IMG/VR virus record: IMGVR_UViG_2548876964_000024
Coordinates: 1 to 27,437 of that record
DNA: 27,437 bases
Source: a virus
Taxonomy: Duplodnaviria > Heunggongvirae > Uroviricota > Caudoviricetes
Strand: one strand, 5' to 3'
Shown piece after piece: positions 14-27,437 of the stretch; the stretch's first letter is position 1; the number at the start of each line of letters is the position of its first letter. Below the pieces are notes generated by a model. It saw only the letters and a program-made list of their open reading frames with translations, ran no database searches and had not been told where the DNA came from. Position numbers and translations under genes: made by a program.

Positions 14-89
14 TGGTGCCGATTAACGGGATCGAACCGCTGACCATTCGCTTACAAAGCGACTGCTCTACCAACTGAGCTAAATCGGC
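14..89 (-). tRNA. tRNA-Thr (anticodon UGU), CCA encoded
   Basis: Reverse complement folds as cloverleaf: 7-bp acceptor stem GCCGATT/AATCGGC, T-loop TTCGATC, anticodon loop TTTGTAA (U33, anticodon TGT), 3' discriminator A + CCA. Differs from E. coli chromosomal Thr tRNAs as I recall them. Confidence 0.75.
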
Positions 90-93
90 AATG

Positions 94-180
94 TGGTGGG
101 GAGTGATGGAGTCGAACCACCCGAGTCGCAATGACAGTAGATTTACAGTCTACCCCGCTACCCCTACGGACTAACTCCCC
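94..180 (-). tRNA. tRNA-Tyr (anticodon GUA), type II with long variable arm, CCA encoded
   Basis: Reverse complement: acceptor stem GGGGAGT/ACTCCCC, anticodon stem GTAGA/TCTAC with loop CTGTAAA (anticodon GTA), long variable arm, T-loop TTCGACT, 3' ACCA. Confidence 0.7.
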
Positions 181-185
181 TAAAG

Positions 186-260
186 TGGCGATGGTGGGTG
201 GATTCGAACTACCGACCAGTTGGTTAACAGCCAACTGCTCTACCGCTGAGCTACACCATC
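186..260 (-). tRNA. tRNA-Asn (anticodon GUU), CCA encoded
   Basis: Reverse complement: acceptor stem GATGGTG/CACCATC, D-arm GCTCAGCGGTAGAGC, anticodon stem GTTGG/CCAAC with loop CTGTTAA (anticodon GTT), T-loop TTCGAAT, 3' GCCA. Confidence 0.8.
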
Positions 261-925
261 ACTTGCCGGGTACGTCTCCGGCGAGGGCTTCCACCTCCGT
301 ATGCTTTTCGGCGCACCGCGCCCTGGCTGCAATTCGGTAACAGGGGATGCATAACCCTGGCTTCCAGCGTGATTAGCGCCTTCAGCATGACGGGATATAC
401 CCGTAAATTCGTGGAACTGTACCCAAAGTGCTGTTAAGCACCGCTGTTACGCTGAAAAGAAAACGCAACAGGAAAGGACGCTGACCAACAGATGGCCCCT
501 TCTCGTTCATCTGGTTAATCACACCAGCGCCCTTACCTGTTGTGCCTCCCCGTTCCCTAATACACAGACGGGGACACTCTGCGGTCGATTTTTTGACGGG
601 GGACGACTCATACCCCATGGCATCTGGCTTCTTAGGCCGCTACCATCATCAGATCATCGTTTGCATTTACTTTAATGGTCAGTTTCTAAACCGCCGCAAA
701 GTCGCTAACCATGACGAAAACCCTGAAAAAAACGCCCACCCGAAGATGGGCAAACTGGACGCTCGTAACGCACTTCGGCGTTGCCACTTAGGCGCATGGT
801 CAACCTGGCAACTCGGTGGTTTGTCTGGGAGGACTAGGCCCAGCCATGCTTACCGCCGCGCCTGTCGCGGCTAACAGCTAAATCGCTCTATAAATCACGA
901 TTCATTGAGGTGATATTACACTAAT

Positions 926-942
926 AAATTTATTAGAGCAAT
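926..942 (-). promoter_or_regulatory. C1 repressor operator-like site (17/17 match to ATTGCTCTAATAAATTT on minus strand)
   Basis: Plus strand reads AAATTTATTAGAGCAAT, the exact reverse complement of the P1 C1 operator consensus as I recall it. Overlaps the dmt stop codon and lies upstream of the minus-strand tRNA cluster. Confidence 0.6.
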
Positions 943-5470: not shown

Positions 5471-5487
5471 ATATTTATTAGAGCAAT
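5471..5487 (-). promoter_or_regulatory. C1 repressor operator-like site (16/17 match) in divergent promoter region
   Basis: Plus strand ATATTTATTAGAGCAAT, one mismatch to the reverse complement of ATTGCTCTAATAAATTT; sits 9 nt upstream of the minus-strand operon start codon. Confidence 0.6.
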
Positions 5488-18064: not shown

Positions 18065-18697
18065 ATGTTTGTGCCTGTACTGTTAAAGGGGGACTCTAAA
18101 ATGGCTGTGATTCCAATGTCGTACTCCCCGGGTACTGTCGCTCGTCGATTTTCGATCCTGGACGGAGTTACCATCCAGGGTGTGCTTTACCAGGTTATAT
18201 GGGATTCCAAAACCCCATTTGCAGCTGTAATAGAGGCTGCGCCTTCTGTTATCGATGGTGATATGCGGCATAAGGTTGTCGCTACTCTTGAACTTCAACG
18301 TCGCCCGCAGCTTGAAGGCGTACTGGTAAGGAAGTTCTGGGAGGATAGCGATGTTGCCCAGATTGAAGGTATCGTGGTTGATGGAACTGTCCGGGATGTC
18401 GGTTTAGCTACTTTTGTTTACGAAACCGTAGCCTCAAAAGCTGGTGTTGTTTTGCTCAGTGATAATGAGCAATACGAAGGTGGAAAAGCTCTTTGGCAAC
18501 ATATCGCCCGTCGCTCTTCCGAGCTAAAAGTGTTTATCCTCGACACCGATGCCGCTCAGTATTACCCGTTTGACGGCGAACGTGTTTGCTATGACGGGGT
18601 AAGTATTCCTGAATCCGAGATATGGAGTGAACACCCAGATCGAAGTAAGCATGGGGTTGTTCTGGTCGCTGAATCCATAATTGGAAATGCGGCATAG
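18065..18697 (+). CDS. Hypothetical protein (possibly pmgF-like), 210 aa (alternative start at 18101)
   Basis: ORF after the terminator; candidate weak C1-operator-like site (13/17) at 18033-18049 upstream. Confidence 0.45.
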   Translation: MFVPVLLKGDSKMAVIPMSYSPGTVARRFSILDGVTIQGVLYQVIWDSKTPFAAVIEAAPSVIDGDMRHKVVATLELQRRPQLEGVLVRKFWEDSDVAQIEGIVVDGTVRDVGLATFVYETVASKAGVVLLSDNEQYEGGKALWQHIARRSSELKVFILDTDAAQYYPFDGERVCYDGVSIPESEIWSEHPDRSKHGVVLVAESIIGNAA

Positions 18698-18879
18698 CAG
18701 TAAAAAATTCCTTGCTCCTTAAAATGGGAGAGGGTTAATCTACGTATGCTAAGCATAGATATGGCCTCAGATTAATGTTAAGCGTCTTGCAGGACGCGTA
18801 ATGTTATCTGGGGCTTTCTTCTATCTGCTTTTCGGGTAATGCCTGAAGCAGATAGCCTCAAGCACCCGCAACGATTGTA

Positions 18880-19175: not shown

Positions 19176-20021
19176 TCACCCTCTGAATCCTGCCGGTATA
19201 CCCCATTGTTCGTTATCTTTATTTTTGGCTAAAACCGCATTAAGAGCTTCGTTTACCGTCATGCAATGCGGCAGATTATCGAAGTTTGATACCCCGCCAA
19301 TATCAGGAGAACGCTTGTTCTTCAGGTAAGCATATTTCCGCGCTGCCGCCTCTACTTTCTGCTTGAACTCATGTTTTTGAGCGCGTTTTTTGGATAACCG
19401 CAGATTGTCAGCCTTTGCTTTTGCCTCAGCGATCCATGAAGTCAATTTTTTGAGTTTGGTCGTTCCGGCAGCGCCGGAAACTGATCTTTTTGTTTTTTTA
19501 AATTGTGACTTCTTATTCTTTATTGCCACGTCATCCTGACAGGGGGAGGGGGTATCATTTTGACATGGGGGTGTGGATAAAAAATTAAATAAAGCCAATG
19601 TCTTAGCGAGAACAGCTTTAACCTTGGTTGCCGCTGAAGAGATCTTTAATTTGCTTTCAATCAGCGCATTTTTGGCTTGTTGTGCGAAGGCCAAAAAGGA
19701 TGGTGTAAACCGGTACAGGTTAGCGCGACGTTCACGGTGATCGCCGATAACAATCTCTACAGACAGAATTCCTTTGTTTACAGCTTCACGGAATGCACGA
19801 ACGACGGTTGATTGGCTATAACCAGTTTCTGCCGCGATCAGGCGGTGAGGCTTGTGAATGAAGTATTCACTGGTTGTTGCCGCTAGATTTGCACATTGCG
19901 ACAGGATATGCCCGGCGCTACGGGATAGACCGGAGTGTGTTACAAAGCAGGCCAATTCATAGCCAGAAAAAGTAAAATCGCTCATCGTTATACAGCTCAG
20001 GAAAGTGACTTTAGCCAGCAT
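19176..20021 (-). CDS. repL: Lytic replication initiator RepL, 281 aa
   Basis: Position immediately downstream of kilA and sequence features of RepL family (HTH-like region TGYSQSTVVRAFREAVNKGIL; basic Lys-rich C-terminal half). Confidence 0.7.
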   Translation of the reverse strand: MLAKVTFLSCITMSDFTFSGYELACFVTHSGLSRSAGHILSQCANLAATTSEYFIHKPHRLIAAETGYSQSTVVRAFREAVNKGILSVEIVIGDHRERRANLYRFTPSFLAFAQQAKNALIESKLKISSAATKVKAVLAKTLALFNFLSTPPCQNDTPSPCQDDVAIKNKKSQFKKTKRSVSGAAGTTKLKKLTSWIAEAKAKADNLRLSKKRAQKHEFKQKVEAAARKYAYLKNKRSPDIGGVSNFDNLPHCMTVNEALNAVLAKNKDNEQWGIPAGFRG

Positions 20022-20050: not shown

Positions 20051-20851
20051 TTAGCGCGCTGCCGCGACAGGTACCAGCACACCAGCATCAAGCAATCGCT
20101 TCATCAGCCACTGCTGACCTTTGCCGGTTATACGAGTCGTGAAAGAAATCCTGCTTCCATTGCTTGTATCGATCACGGTTTCTTTAAGGGTGAAATACCC
20201 ACGGGATATGTATTCTTGTTTGGGGACGTTCCTGCGTTCACCGGTTGCGATCAGAATTCCGTTATCACGCAACCAGGTGAAGAGATAGTTTTGGCCCAGG
20301 CCGAGCACTTTGGCATAGTTGCCGATTAGAACCCCGCTGGCGGTAGCAACGCGTTCGGCGAATTCGACTTTAGGTGCATCCATAAGCATTTTTTGCTCCA
20401 GCCGTTGCTTTTGCTCTGCCAGGTCGGCAGCCAAACGGAGAGCTTCAGGGAGACTCTGCGGAATAGCAGGTTGTAATCTTCCGGCTCGATAGTCGATAAA
20501 TGTCTGGTTTACCTTCAGCCGAAACGCGGGAGAAATCCAGCCTGCGTACTCCACAGCGAGCAATTCATGGGCAAAAGTGCCGCCGCCACGGCCTTCGAAC
20601 GAAACTATGCAATTCTGCATAGTTTCTTTTTCAAGCTCTTCGATGAGCTGTTTGGCTGACAGCGTTCTTAGCCATTGAGCTGGCGCTTTATGGGCACCGA
20701 GTCCGCTCGCTCTGTGTAGAGCATTAAGGTTGTAACGGCCAGCGTGGTCGGTCGTAATTTCAACACCACAAATAACAGGCAGAGTGGTTGAAGGATCGAC
20801 ATTTTGATGAAGGTTTGATATATTCATATCCGCATTGAATGTTTGTTGCAT
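20051..20851 (-). CDS. kilA: KilA (KilA-N domain plus antirepressor-type C-terminal domain), 266 aa
   Basis: N-terminal KilA-N-like region; C-terminal ~130 aa closely similar to the C-terminus of the adjacent ant product (IPQSLPEALRLAADLAEQK... vs IPQTLPEALRLAAELAEQK...). Confidence 0.7.
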   Translation of the reverse strand: MQQTFNADMNISNLHQNVDPSTTLPVICGVEITTDHAGRYNLNALHRASGLGAHKAPAQWLRTLSAKQLIEELEKETMQNCIVSFEGRGGGTFAHELLAVEYAGWISPAFRLKVNQTFIDYRAGRLQPAIPQSLPEALRLAADLAEQKQRLEQKMLMDAPKVEFAERVATASGVLIGNYAKVLGLGQNYLFTWLRDNGILIATGERRNVPKQEYISRGYFTLKETVIDTSNGSRISFTTRITGKGQQWLMKRLLDAGVLVPVAAAR

Positions 20852-20920: not shown

Positions 20921-20937
20921 AAATTTATTAGAGCAAA
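20921..20937 (-). promoter_or_regulatory. C1 operator-like site (16/17), Op53-type, at the kilA-repL promoter
   Basis: Plus strand AAATTTATTAGAGCAAA, 70 nt upstream of the kilA start on the minus strand. Confidence 0.6.
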
Positions 20938-21014: not shown

Positions 21015-22403
21015 TTAACCTATTGCTACTGGTTTTAACAAACCAGCATCAAGTAGCTTGCGAGTTAACCACTGCTGGCCTTTACCCGTTAATTGGGGCG
21101 TCAGCCGTATCTGGTAGCCATTTTCATCATCCAGCACCACTTCTTTCACCGTGAAATACCCGGCGTTGATGTACTGTTGGCGCGGTACGTTTTTGCGCGC
21201 TCCAAAAGCCATGAGAATGCCATTCTGGCGCAACCATGAGAAAAGGGCGTTTTGCTTAAGTCCAACGACCTTTGCAAAGTTCCCGATCAGGATTCCATTA
21301 GCCACTGATACCCGGTCGGCAAAATCGACTTTAGGGGCTGCGGCCACCAGCTGTTGTTCCAACTGCATTTTCTGTTCTGCCAACTCGGCGGCCAGGCGCA
21401 AGGCTTCTGGTAATGTTTGGGGGATTGTGACCGGTTGCTGTTCTTTTTGCCGGAAGTAGCTGTCTTCCAGTTTTTCAAAGAATGCCCACGCTTGCTCTGT
21501 GTCTACGATCTTAGACATGCGTGCCGCTCCGCGTTCGGTCCAGAGTATTAAGGATCTGGTCTTGGGGGAAATTTGCAACTCGCTAAAAGATAGTCGCAAA
21601 CTTTTTATCTCATCTCCTTTGATTTTAAAGAAGTGTTTACCCTCTACAAATCGTTCTTCGTTGCGATTGTAGTTCTGCTGAATACGAATAGGTGTAGTGT
21701 CATACCCTCTAGCAAGAGTCTCGGTTGTCACGACGCGTACTCCCTGCCATTCCAGAACGGGAATTTCATCAGGCTGATTTTCAACATTTATAGGTTCCAA
21801 TGCCTGAATCATGGTTTGTAGCGAACGGCGGACCGCTTTTGACTCGCGCGCGGCAACTCGCAGGGCTTGTTTGTAGGTCATGGTTATGACAACCATAGGC
21901 GTACCGCCACCTGGTGGCACGGTTGCACTTTTTGTGTAACCGTCCTCACCTTCTAATTCGTCGAGTATTTTTTCGATGAATTTGTTGTTCCGAACCGCTG
22001 GTTCCCCACATAACTTACGCGCTTCATTGACCATCTTTAACAGTGTCTGGCTGTCGATTGTGTCTCCAGTGTTGGAGATAACATTCACAGCTGGTGATGG
22101 CGTAGCTGAAGCAACAGGTGCTGGTTTTTCAACATTCAAATTATTACCGGTCATTCTATGTGCCTCCTTTCTCATTTCTGCTGCCACTGTTGCGTAACGT
22201 AGACGTCCTTGTTCAATCAAATAATCCCTGATCTCGGCTATCAGTAGCCTGTTGATCACAGCCTTATCTGTTCGGGTATAAAAACGCCTGGTTATCATGA
22301 AATAGTTGGCAATTGCGCCGGGGATCTCCCGTGTCGGCATACAGGTTGTATGCAAAGCGAACGCTTCGGCAATTTCATTACGGGTGACGAGAGGTTTTTT
22401 CAT
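21015..22403 (-). CDS. ant: Antirepressor Ant (immI) with C-terminal KilA-C-type antirepressor domain, 462 aa
   Basis: Start ATG overlaps icd stop (ATGA); C-terminal domain paralogous to KilA C-terminus; synteny c4-icd-ant-kilA-repL. Confidence 0.65.
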   Translation of the reverse strand: MKKPLVTRNEIAEAFALHTTCMPTREIPGAIANYFMITRRFYTRTDKAVINRLLIAEIRDYLIEQGRLRYATVAAEMRKEAHRMTGNNLNVEKPAPVASATPSPAVNVISNTGDTIDSQTLLKMVNEARKLCGEPAVRNNKFIEKILDELEGEDGYTKSATVPPGGGTPMVVITMTYKQALRVAARESKAVRRSLQTMIQALEPINVENQPDEIPVLEWQGVRVVTTETLARGYDTTPIRIQQNYNRNEERFVEGKHFFKIKGDEIKSLRLSFSELQISPKTRSLILWTERGAARMSKIVDTEQAWAFFEKLEDSYFRQKEQQPVTIPQTLPEALRLAAELAEQKMQLEQQLVAAAPKVDFADRVSVANGILIGNFAKVVGLKQNALFSWLRQNGILMAFGARKNVPRQQYINAGYFTVKEVVLDDENGYQIRLTPQLTGKGQQWLTRKLLDAGLLKPVAIG

Positions 22404-22621
22404 AAAACCCCCTGAACGTCGGCAGAGAAGGGGAGGTTCCAGTAACTAAGTGAATTGCGCGAGTTAGTAGAAAAACGGGCAGTAAAAATGCAGGGGCCAT
22501 CAGGCAATTGAGAGCGTGCTTCGTCTTCAGTTGCTGCGATAACGAAGTGATAGTGTTGTTTTTGGCAGGAGTAAAAGCGCCAGATAAATTCAGGATGAGT
22601 AGGGGTAGGGATAGTAGCCAC
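22400..22621 (-). CDS. icd: Icd-like cell-division interference protein, 73 aa, GTG start, translationally coupled to ant
   Basis: 73-aa ORF matching the length of P1 Icd (recollection); SD AAGGAGG 7 nt upstream of GTG; stop overlaps ant ATG. Confidence 0.55.
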   Translation of the reverse strand: MATIPTPTHPEFIWRFYSCQKQHYHFVIAATEDEARSQLPDGPCIFTARFSTNSRNSLSYWNLPFSADVQGVL

Positions 22622-22639
22622 AATGGCAGCCTCCTTTTG

Positions 22640-22800
22640 CTAATTTAAGGAGCTACCGCGTGAGGTTCCAATCTCAATGGCGGTAGCACTGACTGGGTTG
22701 GAACTACCGGCGCAAAAGGGAACCGGCCTGCCTTTCGGCAGCCCAGCCAGCACTACCATTGATCTCGGAGCTATGTGCTACGTATGGCTGTGCGATGGCA
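22640..22800 (-). ncRNA. c4: Candidate c4-type antisense repressor RNA region (immI), exact ends not determined
   Basis: GC-rich structured, non-coding leader upstream of icd on the minus strand, downstream of an Op51-like operator; direct repeat TAGCTCC occurs near the icd RBS and about 115 nt upstream (as a1/b1 versus a'/b' target-type elements would). Confidence 0.3.
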
Positions 22801-22807
22801 TGACACA

Positions 22808-22832
22808 AAAAAAGACGCTTTTGGCGTCTGTG
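22808..22832 (-). terminator. Rho-independent terminator on minus strand inside immI leader
   Basis: Minus-sense AGACGC-CAAAA-GCGTCT followed by TTTTTTT. Confidence 0.6.
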
Positions 22833-22955
22833 TCGCCTTTTGCATTATCCGGGGTTCCAATCCCGGCATCCGTTTTACTAAGATGCCTGTTTAGGATAAA
22901 CCGAAAATGCATTAGCACGCAAGCAAGTTAATGTAGCATATGAAGCTAAAAAAAT

Positions 22956-22972
22956 AAAATAATTAGAGCAAC
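22956..22972 (-). promoter_or_regulatory. C1 operator-like site (14/17), Op51-type, at immI promoter
   Basis: Minus-sense GTTGCTCTAATTATTTT versus consensus ATTGCTCTAATAAATTT. Confidence 0.4.
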
Positions 22973-23021
22973 TTGCAACCATGTGAATTATTTCTCTGGT
23001 AACTAAAATGTATGAGTTTAA

Positions 23022-23047
23022 TTGATATGGGTCAAAGATTTTGACCA
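23022..23047. promoter_or_regulatory. Overlapping palindromes upstream of cargo gene A (putative operator)
   Basis: GGTCAAA-GAT-TTTGACC (23022-23038) overlapping ACCAT-TGC-ATGGT (23035-23047), about 75 nt upstream of the 23119 start. Confidence 0.35.
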
Positions 23048-23118
23048 TTGCATGGTGAAACTTTATGCTACAAAATGTTATTTTAAGGCGTTTTATCTGT
23101 GGCAGGAGATAGTTAATC

Positions 23119-23469
23119 ATGTCATCTGAACATGTTCGTAAAGGTGTAACAAATGCGAAATTCAATGAAGAGCAATCTAATATTCTCTTTATTGAAATAG
23201 GAATTCTGTCAATACTGATAGGTTTAATGTCTAAATCATGGTGGGCCTTTGGCGGTTCTTTTCTTGGACTGATTTTTAGTTTAAGAATAAAATTTCTGGC
23301 AATACCATTGATGATTGTATTTAGCTTAGTATGGGGAGCTATTGGCTATAGTATTGGTACTTTGTTTGAATCAACAGCAGCAAGTATTGTTTTGGGGGTA
23401 ATTGCTTTCCTGAGTGGTTTGGGTACTCATTTTGCTGCCGTGCAATGGGCAAATGATATTGCAGAATAA
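23119..23469 (+). CDS. Small polytopic inner-membrane protein (cargo gene A), 116 aa
   Basis: ATG after GGCAGGAGATAG; three to four hydrophobic helices; AT-rich codon usage distinct from flanking phage genes. Confidence 0.55.
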   Translation: MSSEHVRKGVTNAKFNEEQSNILFIEIGILSILIGLMSKSWWAFGGSFLGLIFSLRIKFLAIPLMIVFSLVWGAIGYSIGTLFESTAASIVLGVIAFLSGLGTHFAAVQWANDIAE

Positions 23470-23491
23470 TTACAGATAAGAAGCGAAAAGA

Positions 23492-23968
23492 ATGAATATG
23501 AGATGGTTTTTATTATTTGTATCGTTAGTTTCAGCAGGAACATTTGCAAAAATAGATCCTCTACAATGGAATGTAATTGAAGAGAGAGGGGGGAGAGAAT
23601 ATACAATCCATAATCATAATGGTGATAAGATAAGTTTTTTATGTGATATGGGATTCATGTATGGTTCACCAGATAGTGCAGGTAGTTTAGGCTTGTTGCT
23701 AAGTTCGTCGAATAATAAAAAAGAGTATAATGCTGACAAGAATAAAATAGTATTAACTATAGATGGTGAGCAATATCCTTTTAGCAATCTTGGATCAATG
23801 GTTGGAGATTCTTGGTGGTATGCCTTTTGGCAAGATGCAGCAGATTCAAATGCTAATGCGATCGATGCTTATGTTGATAATGAAAAAATTGCCACATTTC
23901 CTCTTTCTGGGCTAAGTAAATTATATCAACAAGCTAAAAACGATGGATGCTTAAAGCGCGGCGATTAA
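23492..23968 (+). CDS. Secreted/periplasmic protein with Sec signal peptide (cargo gene B), 158 aa
   Basis: N-terminal MNMRWFLLFVSLVSAGTFA signal peptide (A-x-A-type cleavage site likely after TFA); AT-rich. Confidence 0.55.
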   Translation: MNMRWFLLFVSLVSAGTFAKIDPLQWNVIEERGGREYTIHNHNGDKISFLCDMGFMYGSPDSAGSLGLLLSSSNNKKEYNADKNKIVLTIDGEQYPFSNLGSMVGDSWWYAFWQDAADSNANAIDAYVDNEKIATFPLSGLSKLYQQAKNDGCLKRGD

Positions 23969-23987
23969 TTTTATTGCAAATTTAACG

Positions 23988-24012
23988 TAACCCATAAAGC
24001 GATTATGGGTTA
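23988..24012. terminator. 10-bp stem-loop between convergent cargo genes (putative bidirectional terminator, no clear U-tract)
   Basis: TAACCCATAA-AGCGA-TTATGGGTTA. Confidence 0.35.
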
Positions 24013-24019
24013 CAAAATA

Positions 24020-24913
24020 TTAAGATGTTGTGTTATAACAGTCTGTTTCTTCAAAGCAATGGGTCAGGTTATTGATCACAGGTTCTCCTTTCTCGTGTCT
24101 GAGAATAAGAGAGCCTCCATTAGTAGACCATTTATCTGAAACAGCAACAAAATTACAGAAGCAGCTACTCCCTGAAATTTCTCTTGCAATTCTTATAAAA
24201 TGAAATGCTCTAACTTCGAGACCTGGAACAATTTGTCCAAGACATTCTCTCATTGAATCTTCATCAAAGTCTCCATTTATTATTCCTGAACAGATAAACT
24301 CATAATAATTAAGAACGAAGAACATATCATTACCTGCTGATATGTATTTATCATGGACCTTTTTATCTTTTAAATCTTTATCATTTGGGATAAGTCTTTG
24401 TTTGGCAATAATTTCATTTATGGTTTTTCTAAGCCCGAACGTATTCGCTACCGATGAGACTTTTTTGTGAAATAATTCACTGTTTCTTTGATTCATTAGT
24501 GTATTTAAGGTGTGTGATTTTCTTGCGGCTACTTTACTCACAGTAGCCTGAACCCACCACCCAGAACCAAGTAGCACAGAACTTATAAGTAAAGCAATTG
24601 TGGATTGGTATACATCACCATATAAATAATATAATATAAATACACTATATAGCGTTACACCAAAGATTAAAGCTATAATGGTAATCCCATCGTTTGTTTC
24701 TGGGTATTTTTTTGCTATCTTTTCCTTTATCGTTATGCTGATAAAGGCGGAGAAGAACGCAAACATTAAGAATGGTAAAACTTCATCGAGAGAAAAAGAT
24801 AATGTTTTCTTGATAATATCTTCTCGAGATTCAAATATCATGAAAAAAAGTAATGAGAGAAAAAAAGTTAAGTGAGTATATTTATGTTTTATGTATTTCT
24901 GTAAAGAATGCAT
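24020..24913 (-). CDS. Membrane-anchored protein: N-terminal 3-4 TM helices plus about 160-aa cytoplasmic domain of unknown function (cargo gene C), 297 aa
   Basis: Long AT-rich ORF convergent with genes A/B; hydrophobic N-terminal third; no recognisable catalytic motif. Confidence 0.55.
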   Translation of the reverse strand: MHSLQKYIKHKYTHLTFFLSLLFFMIFESREDIIKKTLSFSLDEVLPFLMFAFFSAFISITIKEKIAKKYPETNDGITIIALIFGVTLYSVFILYYLYGDVYQSTIALLISSVLLGSGWWVQATVSKVAARKSHTLNTLMNQRNSELFHKKVSSVANTFGLRKTINEIIAKQRLIPNDKDLKDKKVHDKYISAGNDMFFVLNYYEFICSGIINGDFDEDSMRECLGQIVPGLEVRAFHFIRIAREISGSSCFCNFVAVSDKWSTNGGSLILRHEKGEPVINNLTHCFEETDCYNTTS

Positions 24914-24923
24914 TTTAAATCCT

Positions 24924-24960
24924 AAAAAAATACGCCCATTAAAGGGCGTTTTATTGTTTT
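24924..24960. terminator. Bidirectional terminator-like hairpin (A7 - ACGCCC-ATTAAA-GGGCGT - T-rich) at edge of cargo module
   Basis: Stem 24932-24937 / 24944-24949 flanked by A-run upstream and TTTTATTGTTTT downstream; 19 nt from the gene C start codon. Confidence 0.5.
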
Positions 24961-24990
24961 ACTCAAAACAACCTGACTCAAAACAACCTG
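24961..24990 (+). repeat. Perfect 15-bp tandem duplication ACTCAAAACAACCTG x2
   Basis: Identical adjacent copies at 24961-24975 and 24976-24990. Confidence 0.9.
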
Positions 24991-25102
24991 ATTGTGTGAT
25001 AACCATATGATACTCCTCATTCCATCTACACTACCTACTCTAACTTAATGATACCATATTACTCCCGGACGGCAATATTCCCACTCAATGGACAAATGAC
25101 TA

Positions 25103-25710
<608 letters not shown>

Positions 25711-27213: not shown

Positions 27214-27437
27214 ACTCAGGCTGCCAGATCATCGTTTCCGATGGAAGCATAATAAGCTTTTTCTGCTTCTGCCGGAGGAGTATGGCCCAGCCTTCCCAGC
27301 AATCGTCGATTGTTATACCAGTCCACCCACGTTAGTGTGGCCAGTTCCACTTCTGCACGGTTTTTCCAGCTCTTACGGTGTATTACCTCCGCTTTGTAAA
27401 GACCATTGATGCTCTCAGCCATCGCGTTGTCATACGA
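27174..27437 (-). mobile_element. IS3-family insertion sequence (IS629/IS1203-like terminal repeat), partial; continues beyond window end
   Basis: Terminal sequence TGAACCGCCCCGGGTTTCCTGGAGA at 27174 matches the IS629-group inverted repeat as recalled; adjacent transposase C-terminus on minus strand. Confidence 0.65.
27216..27437 (-). CDS. IS3-family transposase OrfB (DDE/rve integrase core), C-terminal fragment; N-terminus outside window
   Basis: C-terminal sequence SYDNAMAESINGLYKAEVIHRKSWKNRAEVELATLTWVDWYNNRRLLGRLGHTPPAEAEKAYYASIGNDDLAA typical of IS3-family OrfB. Confidence 0.75.
   Translation of the reverse strand, partial: SYDNAMAESINGLYKAEVIHRKSWKNRAEVELATLTWVDWYNNRRLLGRLGHTPPAEAEKAYYASIGNDDLAA

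Follow-up and report, generated by a model that had tools for sequence, protein, structure and literature searches.

The window analysed here is the whole of a 27,437-nt stretch of viral DNA (Caudoviricetes; IMG/VR record IMGVR_UViG_2548876964_000024), and its positions 22622-22972, read on the minus strand, most probably serve as the control leader of c4-icd-ant, an antirepressor operon of the immI type in a P1-like plasmid prophage. The features of the locus are collected in Table 1. As in a P1-type immI locus, c4 is followed by icd and a translationally coupled antirepressor gene, the start of ant overlapping the stop of icd (ATGA), and from 22594 onward icd and ant are about 95% identical to P1. 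A first-pass annotation had described the region as an immI-type leader with a C1-operator-like site, which was borne out, and had pointed to P1/P7 c4 RNA for comparison; at the sequence level the leader is no homologue of P1/P7. Similarity to P1/P7 starts at query positions 537-540, corresponding to window positions 22591-22594 inside icd (95.8% identity to P1 from query position 537), and a sequence search with the leader as query detected no nucleotide similarity to P1 or P7 upstream of ~22594, so that leader and c4 lack the sequence homology of a P1-type immI locus. The leader is ~88% identical to those of phages D6 and JL22 and is joined within icd to P1-type icd/ant.

Table 1. Features of the c4-icd-ant locus, in window coordinates
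Feature	Position	Strand	Description and basis
C1-repressor operator-like site	22956-22972	-	14/17 consensus match; positional counterpart of P1 Oc4/Op51
Promoter-like element	22893-22922	-	-35 TTGCGT 22917-22922, 17-bp spacer, -10 TATCCT 22893-22898; predicted, conserved in relatives
IsrK-family leader RNA	22806-22886	-	Rfam isrK RF01394 match 22808-22886; three-hairpin fold
a1	22854-22861	-	ATTGGAAC; upstream copy of c4 target, in loop of leader hairpin 2
b1	22836-22843	-	GCAAAAGG; upstream copy of second c4 target, exact complement of c4 loop b'
Intrinsic terminator of leader RNA	22806-22829	-	Stem 22813-22829, U7 22806-22812
Upstream TAGCTCC copy	22767-22773	-	5' flank of c4; not conserved
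c4 antisense RNA gene	22676-22763	-	Rfam C4 RF01695, 76.7 bits
39-codon ORF	22640-22759	-	'ash family protein' in RefSeq; starts at invariant AUG at c4 5' end, stop UAG 22640-22642 abuts b2
b'	22712-22719	-	CCTTTTGC; loop of c4 hairpin 2
a'	22698-22704	-	GTTCCAA; single-stranded junction of c4
Alternative hairpin	22652-22687	-	Covariation in 66 sequences
a2	22665-22672	-	ATTGGAAC; target copy in icd mRNA, just 3' of c4
b2	22633-22640	-	GCAAAAGG; target copy overlapping icd SD AAGGAGG 22630-22636
Predicted SD-sequestering hairpin	22625-22657	-	GGUAGCUCCUU 22647-22657 pairs with AAGGAG-GCUGCC 22625-22636
icd-like gene	22400-22621	-	GTG start, 73 aa; NCBIfam phage_ICD_like 51.5 bits; P1-type from ~22594
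Antirepressor gene (ant)	21015-22403	-	462 aa, ORF6N + KilAC; Pfam ANT and ORF6N, ORF list

This leader allele is of the 'IsrK-C4' type, which it shares with phages D6 and JL22 and with lambdoid prophages, with the Rfam isrK and C4 families matching in tandem. The tandem is likewise present in JL22, D6 and Stx phage F039 (both ncRNAs annotated), in Gifsy-1, and in 15 of the 19 C4 copies from 18 diverse viral contigs, and at least 80% of this particular leader allele is carried by 218 PLSDB plasmids and by 190 of 5,426 complete E. coli genomes. Its carriers are P1-like plasmids of E. coli and Salmonella, in their hundreds, and some of the host strains are O111. The RefSeq annotation of this plasmid calls neither RNA, having instead a 39-aa 'ash family protein' within c4. 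All components of the locus, that is a terminated leader RNA, a c4 antisense RNA and c4 binding sites, are of known kinds, and the locus is an ordinary additional member of known RNA families that reveals no new kind of system.

Structured RNA had been predicted from the terminator to the icd start, with a c4-type RNA between two copies of the heptamer TAGCTCC, and both expectations were confirmed. These 184 nt gave a fold z of -4.07 (-5.36 for the whole 287-nt leader), and the Rfam C4 model matched between the two copies at full length, well above its gathering score of 45 bits. An alignment with P1 c4, which is annotated as a 77-nt RNA, puts the predicted mature species at ~22679-22757. The c4 fold, a long closing stem enclosing two hairpins, is kept by compensatory changes: over 66 sequences 99.3% of the cells were paired, as compared with 31-51% in slid controls, and 16 of the 27 pairs had changed on both sides. 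Two segments, the b' loop and the a' junction, remain exposed and are complementary to the downstream sites at the ribosome-binding site. An invariant AU before GG stands where the annotation of P1 c4 puts its mature 5' end, which we take to be the RNase P cleavage site, with GCCA at the 3' end; processing of c4 by RNase P is reportedly covered in the literature of Citron & Schuster and of Hartmann.

The leader RNA ahead of c4 matched the model of isrK, a family of Hfq-binding RNAs, at full length with 58.5 bits (gathering 50). It has the two 5' hairpins and the rho-independent terminator of that family, laid out as hairpin 1 (~22866-22886), the a1-presenting hairpin (~22849-22865), the b1 linker and the 3' terminator, and the middle hairpin can pair with the downstream orf45/c4, its loop a1 being complementary to a'. 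Among 46 aligned leaders hairpin 1 was 97% paired, with all six of its six pairs changed on both sides, and the terminator stem was 95.5% paired. The intrinsic terminator that had been noted earlier was recovered by a terminator scan as AGACGCCAAAAGCGTCT followed by U7, with a hairpin energy of -7.9 kcal/mol, and 68 of 81 related loci have a terminator with a perfect stem in the interval from b1 to c4. This 'internal terminator' is the 3' end of the isrK-family leader RNA, the Salmonella member of which was shown by experiment to have both a terminated sRNA and a read-through mRNA form (PMC4825925). This supports the earlier suggestion of a separate short transcript, to which read-through is to be added.

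The Rfam c4-a1b1 model (RF03163) reached only 18.1 bits on the window (22846-22899), below its gathering score of 46.7, whereas it passes in P1 (51 bits), Gifsy-1 (48 bits) and the related loci L054 and L059. These passing matches overlap isrK matches, and in P1 the annotated a1/b1 region carries an overlapping sub-threshold isrK match of 35 bits that includes the hairpin and U-run. Because its score lies below gathering and its passing relatives overlap isrK, the window leader is not filed under RF03163, although it has the c4-a1b1 layout, with a1 in a hairpin loop followed by b1, and works like c4-a1b1.

The real c4 target sites in this leader are ATTGGAAC and GCAAAAGG, not TAGCTCC. The 7-nt core TTGGAAC shared by a1 and a2 is the exact complement of a' in c4, and b' is exactly complementary to both b1 and b2. 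The corresponding repeats, GATTGGAACC (22853-22862 and 22664-22673) and GCAAAAGG, had been missed by the first-pass annotation. Co-variation was evaluated in a set of 81 non-redundant loci, in which a match of at least 7 nt to the a' of the same locus was found for 90% of the a1 and 98% of the a2 elements, compared with 1.6% and 1.3%, respectively, for the a' of another locus; for b' the corresponding values were 74% (2.2% for another locus) for b1 and 94% (5.1%) for b2. These 81 loci held 16 a-types and 29 b-types in 41 combinations, and between P1 and P7 all six a/b elements differ coordinately. The a1:a' duplex could also be related to published genetics. Table 1D of PMC4825925 lists the compensatory pairs G28A/C162U and G31A/C159U in Gifsy-1 IsrK, and when +1 is set at the start of the Rfam isrK match the published numbering fits and both pairs map, in our analysis, to base pairs of the a1:a' duplex. 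Energies computed for c4-target duplexes and co-folds were uninformative, as the programs do not model loop-loop kissing and chose alternative pairings.

The proposal that c4 has the two TAGCTCC heptamers as its self and target sites has, in our judgement, next to no chance of being right. The heptamer does occur twice, 118 nt apart (the second copy at 22649-22655), and the copies flank c4 with one of them near the icd ribosome-binding site. However, c4 contains no GGAGCUA, and the best duplex with TAGCTCC (-6.8 kcal/mol) falls inside a c4 stem. The repeats are also largely not kept in relatives: among 73 non-redundant related loci just 4 have the pair, and variation of the upstream copy extends into the closest subgroup, where it reads TAGCTCA in JL22, L025, L063 and L110; outside that subgroup it is absent. 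Repeated 7-mers are moreover expected by chance, with a mean of 3.5 per shuffle of the 351-nt region; the 11 observed owe their excess to two longer repeats, the one containing ATTGGAAC and GCAAAAGG itself, which fit c4 exactly and co-vary with it. The TAGCTCC repeat plays no part in c4 recognition. We also considered the upstream copy as an extension of the c4 basal stem that would hide a2, UCCGA pairing with UUGGA of a2 in the 184-nt fold; this was rejected, since members of the subgroup already differ in this segment and no corresponding complementarity is seen in the other subgroups.

For the downstream TAGCTCC a better explanation is that it belongs to GGUAGCUCCUU, one arm of a local hairpin whose predicted partner is the icd SD. 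This hairpin appeared in the minimum-energy and centroid folds of both the leader and the UTR alone; its sequence is kept only within the D6/JL22 subgroup, and the other subgroups sequester the SD with a different partner. The predicted probability of the SD being unpaired was 0.19 in the window, with a median of at most 0.04 across 66 loci. Since the icd SD is predicted to be paired even without c4, c4 may not be the only block.

The alignment of 66 sequences further revealed a previously unremarked alternative hairpin, in which the 3' strand of c4, GCUACCGC (22680-22687), pairs with GCGGUAGC (22652-22659), thereby excluding the c4 closing stem and presenting a2 in an 8-nt loop closed by GAG/CUC. 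In this hairpin 96.4% of the cells were paired, against 28-56% in controls with the partners slid by 1-3 columns, and 9 of the 11 pairs had changed on both sides. Together with the exclusion of the c4 fold, this may point to a structural link between the folding or processing of c4 and the presentation of its target. A relay in which a freed c4 3' strand would form the alternative hairpin and so release the icd SD was not supported: over the 66 loci the predicted unpaired probability of the SD was 0.12 both for c4 plus UTR and for the UTR by itself, and 0.08 once the 5' strand of c4 had been taken away.

With regard to transcription, the C1-operator-like site reported earlier is present, with 14 of the 17 positions of GTTGCTCTAATTATTTT agreeing with ATTGCTCTAATAAATTT, the consensus of the C1 operators of P1. 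A scan of the whole window allowing up to 3 mismatches gave 5 matches with 0.16 expected, and four matches elsewhere in the window are better than this one, those at 926-942 and 20921-20937 having 0-1 mismatches. In JL22-type relatives a better operator (15/17, 2 mismatches) is spaced equally from c4, at about -215, and the Oc4/Op(c4) operator annotated in P1 and P7 lies on the same strand with a similar spacing. The c1 gene is absent from the window, and with 3 mismatches in the operator-like site control by C1 is uncertain. From the predicted promoter the +1 would lie near 22886, as the counterpart of P1 P1c4/P51b. Its -35 TTGCG and -10 hexamer are kept in place both in relatives of the JL22 and D6 types and across the alignment of 46 leaders, and in P1 the annotated P1c4 -10 directly precedes the start of the isrK/c4-a1b1 matches; the TTGCGT/TATCCT pair was not listed by a consensus promoter scan. 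Because a promoter scan between the terminator and c4 found no separate c4 promoter, we assume that expression of c4 relies on read-through.

The main product of 22640-22759 could, according to its PGAP/RefSeq annotation, be a small 'Ash family' protein rather than an RNA, and we consider this reading very improbable. The 39-codon ORF, the counterpart of Salmonella orf45, scores 33 bits with Pfam Phage_ASH (gathering 26); all of 66 loci retain the AUG at the 5' end of c4, and its frame is open for at least 35 codons in 89% of these, as compared with 50% and 14% for the other frames. Against a protein product stand the strong covariance-model score of the RNA and the 16 compensatory pairs, which keep the RNA pairing and not the peptide. 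The Pfam match is furthermore limited to profile positions 49-87, which is the c4 segment, NCBIfam has no family for the 39-aa ORF nor for most of the neighbouring proteins, and in P1, the c4 of which is annotated as an RNA product, the same frame is cut to 14 codons.

Taken as a whole, repression by c4 counteracted by a decoy is in our view the likely explanation of the locus. Transcription would start at ~22886 from the promoter downstream of the C1-operator-like site, with a second, operator-overlapped promoter being probable. The first ~80 nt would form an IsrK-family RNA having a1 (AUUGGAAC) in a hairpin loop, b1 in a linker and a modest terminator, so that terminated transcripts would yield a small RNA mimicking the c4 target. 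Read-through transcripts would carry c4, presumably excised by RNase P as in P1, which would fold with b' in a loop and a' in a single-stranded junction and pair with a2 and b2 ahead of icd. As b2 overlaps the icd SD, translation of icd would be blocked, and the antirepressor gene would be blocked together with it through translational coupling. The short leader RNA, or the a1/b1 part of a read-through transcript, would pair with a' and b' and thereby counteract c4, and how tightly the antirepressor is kept off would depend on how often transcripts terminate relative to reading through. Of this scheme, our own analysis provides the family membership, the positions, the complementarity and co-variation of the six a/b elements and the conservation of the terminator; expression, processing and outcome for this element are what we infer. 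The P1/P7 records describe c4 as an antisense RNA acting on annotated a2/b2 sites, and for Gifsy-1 it is reported that the RNA exists in a terminated and a read-through form, that a1 pairs with a' and that the short RNA activates translation of the antirepressor (PMC4825925). Two points in that report fit less well. The passages concerned with activation explain it in Salmonella by remodelling of a silent mRNA and translation of orf45, not by titration of a free c4-like RNA, and constitutive STnc1160 (the c4-like RNA) made IsrK toxicity stronger, not weaker (PMC4825925), which does not fit a simple model of c4 as repressor and IsrK as decoy.

Those Salmonella findings lead to a cis-acting switch with upstream-ORF coupling, which we regard as possible but doubtful for the window and which can hold together with the decoy mechanism. 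The read-through mRNA would here be silent by its own structure, with the icd SD and the c4 5'-end AUG sequestered; the leader RNA would act in trans on the embedded c4 and open the 39-codon ORF, and ribosomes ending at its UAG would unfold b2/SD, re-initiate at icd and continue to ant. Such a switch is shown for Gifsy-1 isrK-orf45-anrP (PMC4825925), where the orf45 AUG is the c4 AUG. The invariance of that AUG, the preference for its open frame, the stop of the window ORF only 18 nt before the icd GTG and the predicted pairing of the SD in almost all loci agree with it as well. On the other hand, P1 has only the 14 codons and yet an annotated antisense c4 with an a2/b2 target, the invariant AU before GG falls exactly at the annotated mature 5' end of P1 c4, compensatory substitutions in the c4 stems change the encoded peptide, and the IsrK authors found the nucleotide sequence of orf45 but not its amino-acid sequence to be conserved, as reported in PMC12197685.

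It is also conceivable, although unlikely, that the locus uses P4-type transcriptional immunity, in which c4 would pair with a1/b1 (and a2/b2) on the nascent transcript and favour termination both at the leader terminator and further on. As a c4-dependent attenuator, the terminator would switch off icd/ant and make c4 regulate itself, with the short RNA as a by-product. From c4 to b2 the sequence shares 70.5% identity with the immunity region of phage P4, only 6 nt separate b1 from the conserved terminator stem downstream of it, and IsrK has been described as a structural homologue of P4 seqA, with STnc1160 possibly acting like CI RNA on the IsrK terminator (PMC4825925). However, Salmonella IsrK supplied in trans activated translation of the antirepressor 139-fold and transcription only 8-fold, and mutant IsrK was inactive in trans (PMC4825925), so that in Salmonella the short RNA is itself a regulator; the P1 record, moreover, annotates a2/b2 for 'repression of translation of icd, ant mRNA'. 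An additional effect on termination would be compatible with both of these counter-points.

Returning to the decoy mechanism, we tentatively propose a broader reading that may well not hold, namely that the module is a three-RNA switch with a combinatorial address code. It would comprise a leader sRNA (a1 + b1), c4 (a' + b') and an mRNA site (a2 + b2), with two independently exchangeable words and the terminated IsrK-like RNA as a dedicated mimic of the c4 target. If so, Salmonella 'orf45' and Pfam 'Phage_ASH' would be translations of c4-type RNA genes, and the Rfam isrK and c4-a1b1 families would merge. Knowing the true a/b words allows cross-regulation of antirepressors among P1-like plasmids and lambdoid prophages to be predicted, and with it the immunity and induction of these elements. 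The analysis also connects three literatures that are usually separate: P1 c4 with a1/b1, Salmonella IsrK/orf45, and P4 CI/seqA.

When compared with the immI region of P1/P7 (Op51/Oc4, P51a/b, a1-b1, c4, a2-b2, icd, ant1/2), the window has the same order of elements: a C1 operator or operator-like site precedes c4 by ~200-215 nt, a1 occupies a hairpin loop and b1 the linker after it, and a hairpin plus U-run stands ahead of c4. Both also have the same c4 fold, with a2 immediately behind c4 and b2 at the icd SD, and coupling of icd to ant. They differ in the a/b words, which are TTGGAAC/GCAAAAGG in the window, TTGACAG/GTTAGTG in P1 and TTAGCAG/GATTGTG in P7; in the leader, which passes the isrK model in the window and the c4-a1b1 model in P1; and in the length of the ORF from the c4 AUG. 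In addition, sim of P1 is replaced in the window by a low-GC cassette, and Ant is an ORF6N-KilAC chimera.

The Gifsy-1 isrK-orf45(STnc1160)-anrP locus (Hershko-Shalev et al. 2016, PMC4825925) has isrK and C4 in tandem and in the same order ahead of the antirepressor, as in the window, together with the same a1:a' pairing, for which the proof by compensatory mutation is that of Gifsy-1, a leader terminator for which read-through was demonstrated in Gifsy-1, and an ORF from the c4 AUG. Gifsy-1 is, however, an integrated lambdoid prophage that has neither icd nor a C1 operator, its b2/SD lies directly before anrP, and its a/b types, UUGGCGU and AUCACCG, differ from those of the window; the description of the locus in that paper treats the c4 sequence as orf45 and does not treat a2/b2 as targets of a c4-like RNA. 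Closer in sequence are D6/JL22 and, at ~70% leader identity, Stx phages such as F039, all having the identical b type, the same terminator, the c4 scaffold and the downstream TAGCTCC. In D6 and JL22 each of the three copies of a reads TTGAGAC instead of the window's TTGGAAC, a difference that predicts heteroimmunity at the a site, and D6-type loci are without the C1 operator.

The P4 immunity system (CI RNA, seqA/seqB/seqC), finally, shares a homologous scaffold over c4-a2-b2 and, like the window, has complementary sites on either side of the processed RNA; a putative ash gene is annotated over the same stretch of P4, and its name is also that of the Pfam 'Ash' family matched by the ORF inside c4. 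P4 immunity consists of premature transcription termination of the replication genes (PMC4825925) and, unlike the model preferred here for the window, does not act through the ribosome-binding site of an icd/antirepressor mRNA.

Using the Rfam models on the whole window, we found that the immI leader with its c4 RNA had been recognised correctly in the first-pass annotation. The recognition words of c4 (a' and b') and their target copies in the leader (a1/b1) and before icd (a2/b2) were located with a rule read from the P1 GenBank record, which annotates a1, b1, c4, a2 and b2; this rule puts a' in the junction ahead of AACCC and b' in the hairpin 2 loop. A scan of IMG/VR with a c4 core pattern gave 81 non-redundant loci for analysis, where a stretch of 7 nt or more complementary to the locus's own a' or b' stood at the expected a1, a2, b1 and b2 in 90%, 98%, 74% and 94%, respectively, versus 1.6%, 1.3%, 2.2% and 5.1% with the words of other loci. 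These loci held 16 a-words and 29 b-words in 41 combinations. All six elements also differ coordinately between P1 and P7, which fits a role of the a/b sites as putative specificity determinants. The c4 fold was 99.3% paired in a 66-sequence alignment (A1), where 16 of the pairs showed changes on both sides. Some viral contigs had two c4 modules about 0.5–1.3 kb apart with differing a and/or b words, such as TTCGCAG/GATCAAGG and TTGGAAC/GCATACGG in contig L026.

Features of the immI region and of the remaining window, with double c4 modules of two compared viral contigs
Feature	Position	Strand	Remarks
tRNA genes Thr-TGT, Tyr-GTA, Asn-GTT	14-260	-	three, clustered
C1-operator matches	915-942		inverted overlapping pair; 0 and 2 mismatches
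C1-operator match	5471-5487		1 mismatch
sok antitoxin RNA	18693-18867	-	Rfam, 97 bits
281-aa ORF in repL position	19176-20021		ORF list
KilA-N/KilAC protein, after antirepressor	20051-20851		Pfam domains
C1-operator match before kilA-like gene	20921-20937		Op53 position; 1 mismatch
Antirepressor, 462 aa	21015-22403	-	Pfam ORF6N + KilAC; ATGA overlap with icd stop
icd-like gene	22400-22621	-	GTG start; NCBIfam phage_ICD_like, 51.5 bits
b2, GCAAAAGG	22633-22640	-	overlaps icd SD AAGGAGG (22630-22636)
39-aa 'ash family protein' CDS	22640-22759	-	RefSeq/PGAP; wholly inside c4 + a2 flank
a2, ATTGGAAC	22665-22672	-	
C4 antisense RNA	22676-22763	-	Rfam, 76.7 bits (gathering score 45)
a', GTTCCAA	22698-22704	-	
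b', CCTTTTGC	22712-22719	-	
Terminator	22813-22829 (stem), 22806-22812 (U7)	-	terminator scan; -7.9 kcal/mol
isrK	22808-22886	-	Rfam, 58.5 bits (gathering score 50)
b1, GCAAAAGG	22836-22843	-	
a1, ATTGGAAC	22854-22861	-	loop of second leader hairpin
C1-operator-like 17-mer	22956-22972		14 of 17 consensus positions
Small ORF, low-GC block	23119-23469	+	hydrophobic stretches
Small ORF, low-GC block	23492-23968	+	hydrophobic N-terminus
DUF4760 protein, 297 aa, low-GC block	24020-24913	-	
IS3-family transposase fragment, window end	27216-27437		RefSeq name IS1203
Double c4 modules, L026	9643-9796 and 10955-11108		
Double c4 modules, L123	3056-3209 and 3535-3686		

The repeated TAGCTCC (22767-22773 and 22649-22655), earlier taken for the self/target sites of c4, had to be rejected in that role. 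Its complement GGAGCUA was searched for in c4 and was absent, 4 of 73 unique loci had both copies, and repeated heptamers are expected by chance (3.5 per shuffle of the 351 nt), the real excess of repeats being due to GATTGGAACC (10 nt) and GCAAAAGG (8 nt). The upstream copy reads TAGCTCA in phage JL22 and three further close relatives, and the downstream copy is kept only within the D6/JL22 subgroup. The latter sits in GGUAGCUCCUU, which was paired with AAGGAG-GCUGCC, the icd SD, in every predicted fold; in other subgroups the SD is predicted to be sequestered by CUCC or UUCC right after a2, and its median predicted unpaired probability was at most 0.04 in 66 loci. The c4 3' strand can also enter an alternative hairpin (22680-22687 with 22652-22659, minus strand; columns 79-115 of A1), which has an inner GAG/CUC stem and shows a2 in an 8-nt loop; its 3' arm, GCGGUAGC, takes in the first four bases of the downstream TAGCTCC. 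This helix was 96.4% paired in the 66 loci, compared to 28–56% for slid-partner controls, and 9 of its 11 pairs had changed on both sides; it is mutually exclusive with the c4 closing stem. As a simple relay for SD release the hairpin failed, being unsupported by the predictions of unpaired SD in the 66 loci.

The internal intrinsic terminator is present as proposed, and it is the 3' hairpin, a modest one, and U-run of a known sRNA family, isrK; the leader failed the c4-a1b1 model (18 bits). The claim of structured RNA 3' of the terminator was borne out, the 184 nt there being predicted to form a much more stable fold than their shuffles (z = -4.07; whole leader, z = -5.36). Hairpin 1, the a1 hairpin and the terminator were 97%, 88% and 95.5% paired in a 46-sequence leader alignment (A2), including compensatory changes, and 68 of the 81 loci had a perfect-stem terminator between b1 and c4. 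GACAC and GUGUC bracket the terminator (22799-22835, minus strand; A2 columns 92-137) and could pair across the U-run; this bracket was 77% paired in the 46 leaders, with GGACA and UGUCC as the P1/P7 counterpart, and this longer stem could arise only where transcription has read through the terminator.

Rfam lists isrK (RF01394) with no clan and c4-a1b1 (RF03163) in clan CL00128, and a 2025 review keeps IsrK and c4 as separate items (PMC12197685). Matches to isrK and c4-a1b1 were found to overlap in L054 (5157-5244), L059 (839-927), Gifsy-1 (L128, 34240-34329) and P1 (L001, 921-1015), where the annotated a1/b1 region matched c4-a1b1 with 51 bits and the overlapping stretch gave a sub-threshold isrK (35 bits) including a hairpin and U-run before c4. 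Both families match the same DNA and describe a single element: the a1/b1 leader, either including its terminator or lacking it. Directly upstream of 15 of 19 C4 copies, from 18 diverse loci, isrK scored above threshold.

This arrangement could be compared with published experiments on Salmonella Gifsy-1 (Rfam isrK 34240-34316, C4 34131-34214), for which the numbering of Hershko-Shalev et al. (PMC4825925) fits exactly with +1 at the isrK start. On this count A107 is the orf45 start codon, and that codon is the AUG at the 5' end of c4. As G28 and G31 lie in a1 (UUGGCGU, 26-32) and C159 and C162 in a' (ACGCCAA, 158-164), G28A/C162U and G31A/C159U, the compensatory pairs published there, are a1:a' base pairs; a2 is at 192, and b2 (AUCACCG) lies over the anrP SD. 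The same paper showed that IsrK occurs as a terminated sRNA and also, by read-through, as the 5' portion of an isrK-orf45-anrP mRNA, that this long mRNA is translationally silent, and that antirepressor translation rose 139-fold with IsrK in trans; an analogy to P4 seqA/CI and a processed form of the c4-like STnc1160 RNA are mentioned there.

The best-supported model is a c4 block combined with a leader mimic. c4 would block icd at a2/b2, and through icd also ant, and the leader would bear a mimic of the a2/b2 site; termination would yield free mimic RNA counteracting c4, and read-through would yield c4 and mRNA. A simple decoy, however, agrees poorly with the finding, in PMC4825925, that constitutive STnc1160 made IsrK toxicity in Salmonella stronger and not weaker, or with the SD being predicted closed even without c4. 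c4-dependent termination as in P4 would be compatible, and so would a Salmonella-like coupling via the 39-codon ORF inside c4. The latter gains from the AUG at the c4 5' end (22757-22759) being invariant in 66 loci, its frame having no stop for 35 codons or more in 89% of them (other frames, 50% and 14%). In about two-thirds of the loci it continues in frame into the icd-like gene (...EAAIMATV); this could yield an Icd extended at its N-terminus, or could follow from fixed spacing. The ORF matches Pfam PF10554 Phage_ASH (33 bits, profile positions 49-87), a family that may largely be translation of c4/CI-type RNA genes.

Reading the minus strand over 22300-23300 together with the ORF listing gave the gene order of a P1-type immI/lytic-replicon block. 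RefSeq gives two 'incomplete' pseudogene fragments for the antirepressor although its ORF is intact, and its C-terminal KilAC is a close paralogue of that in the next gene. The sok match implies a hok/sok-type post-segregational killing locus adjoining the 281-aa ORF. A low-GC block at 22800-25200 (33–36% versus about 47–52% around) occupies the P1 simABC position and may represent a cassette with an accessory or exclusion role. Plasmid p08_4347-1 of E. coli O111:H8 has the same leader at 100% identity; the remainder of that plasmid stretch has P1-like content (par, rep, dam methylase, tRNAs), and neither c4 nor isrK RNA is annotated in its RefSeq/PGAP record. The element is common in E. coli plasmids: 218 PLSDB plasmids carry the leader at 80% coverage or more, as do 190 of 5,426 complete E. 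coli genomes, and it is nearly always plasmid-borne.

The C1-operator-like 17-mer upstream of the leader was present as claimed, as a predicted site, and the window held five such sites with at most three mismatches versus 0.16 expected. In JL22-type relatives a 15/17 operator stands equally far from c4, and D6-type relatives have none; P1 and P7 have an annotated operator on the same strand at a similar distance. BLAST similarity to P1 and P7 starts at 22591-22594, inside icd, downstream of which icd/ant are about 95% identical to both; the leader and c4 are not P1-like in sequence. Upstream of this junction the icd N-terminal codons (MATIPTP...), SD, a/b sites, c4 and leader are of the D6/JL22/Stx-phage type, and identity over the operator-to-icd stretch is about 88% with JL22 and D6 and about 70% with many Stx-converting phages, one of which (F039) has both ncRNAs annotated. 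Operator, leader, c4, target sites and first icd codons together form a regulatory cassette, a mosaic unit to which a P1-type icd/ant is joined, and the cassette seems to be exchanged as a unit with the first ~10 icd codons. Judged by sequence, the element is a member of known families with an a-word distinct from that of D6 and JL22: it pairs TTGGAAC with GCAAAAGG, whereas these two phages have TTGAGAC with an identical b.
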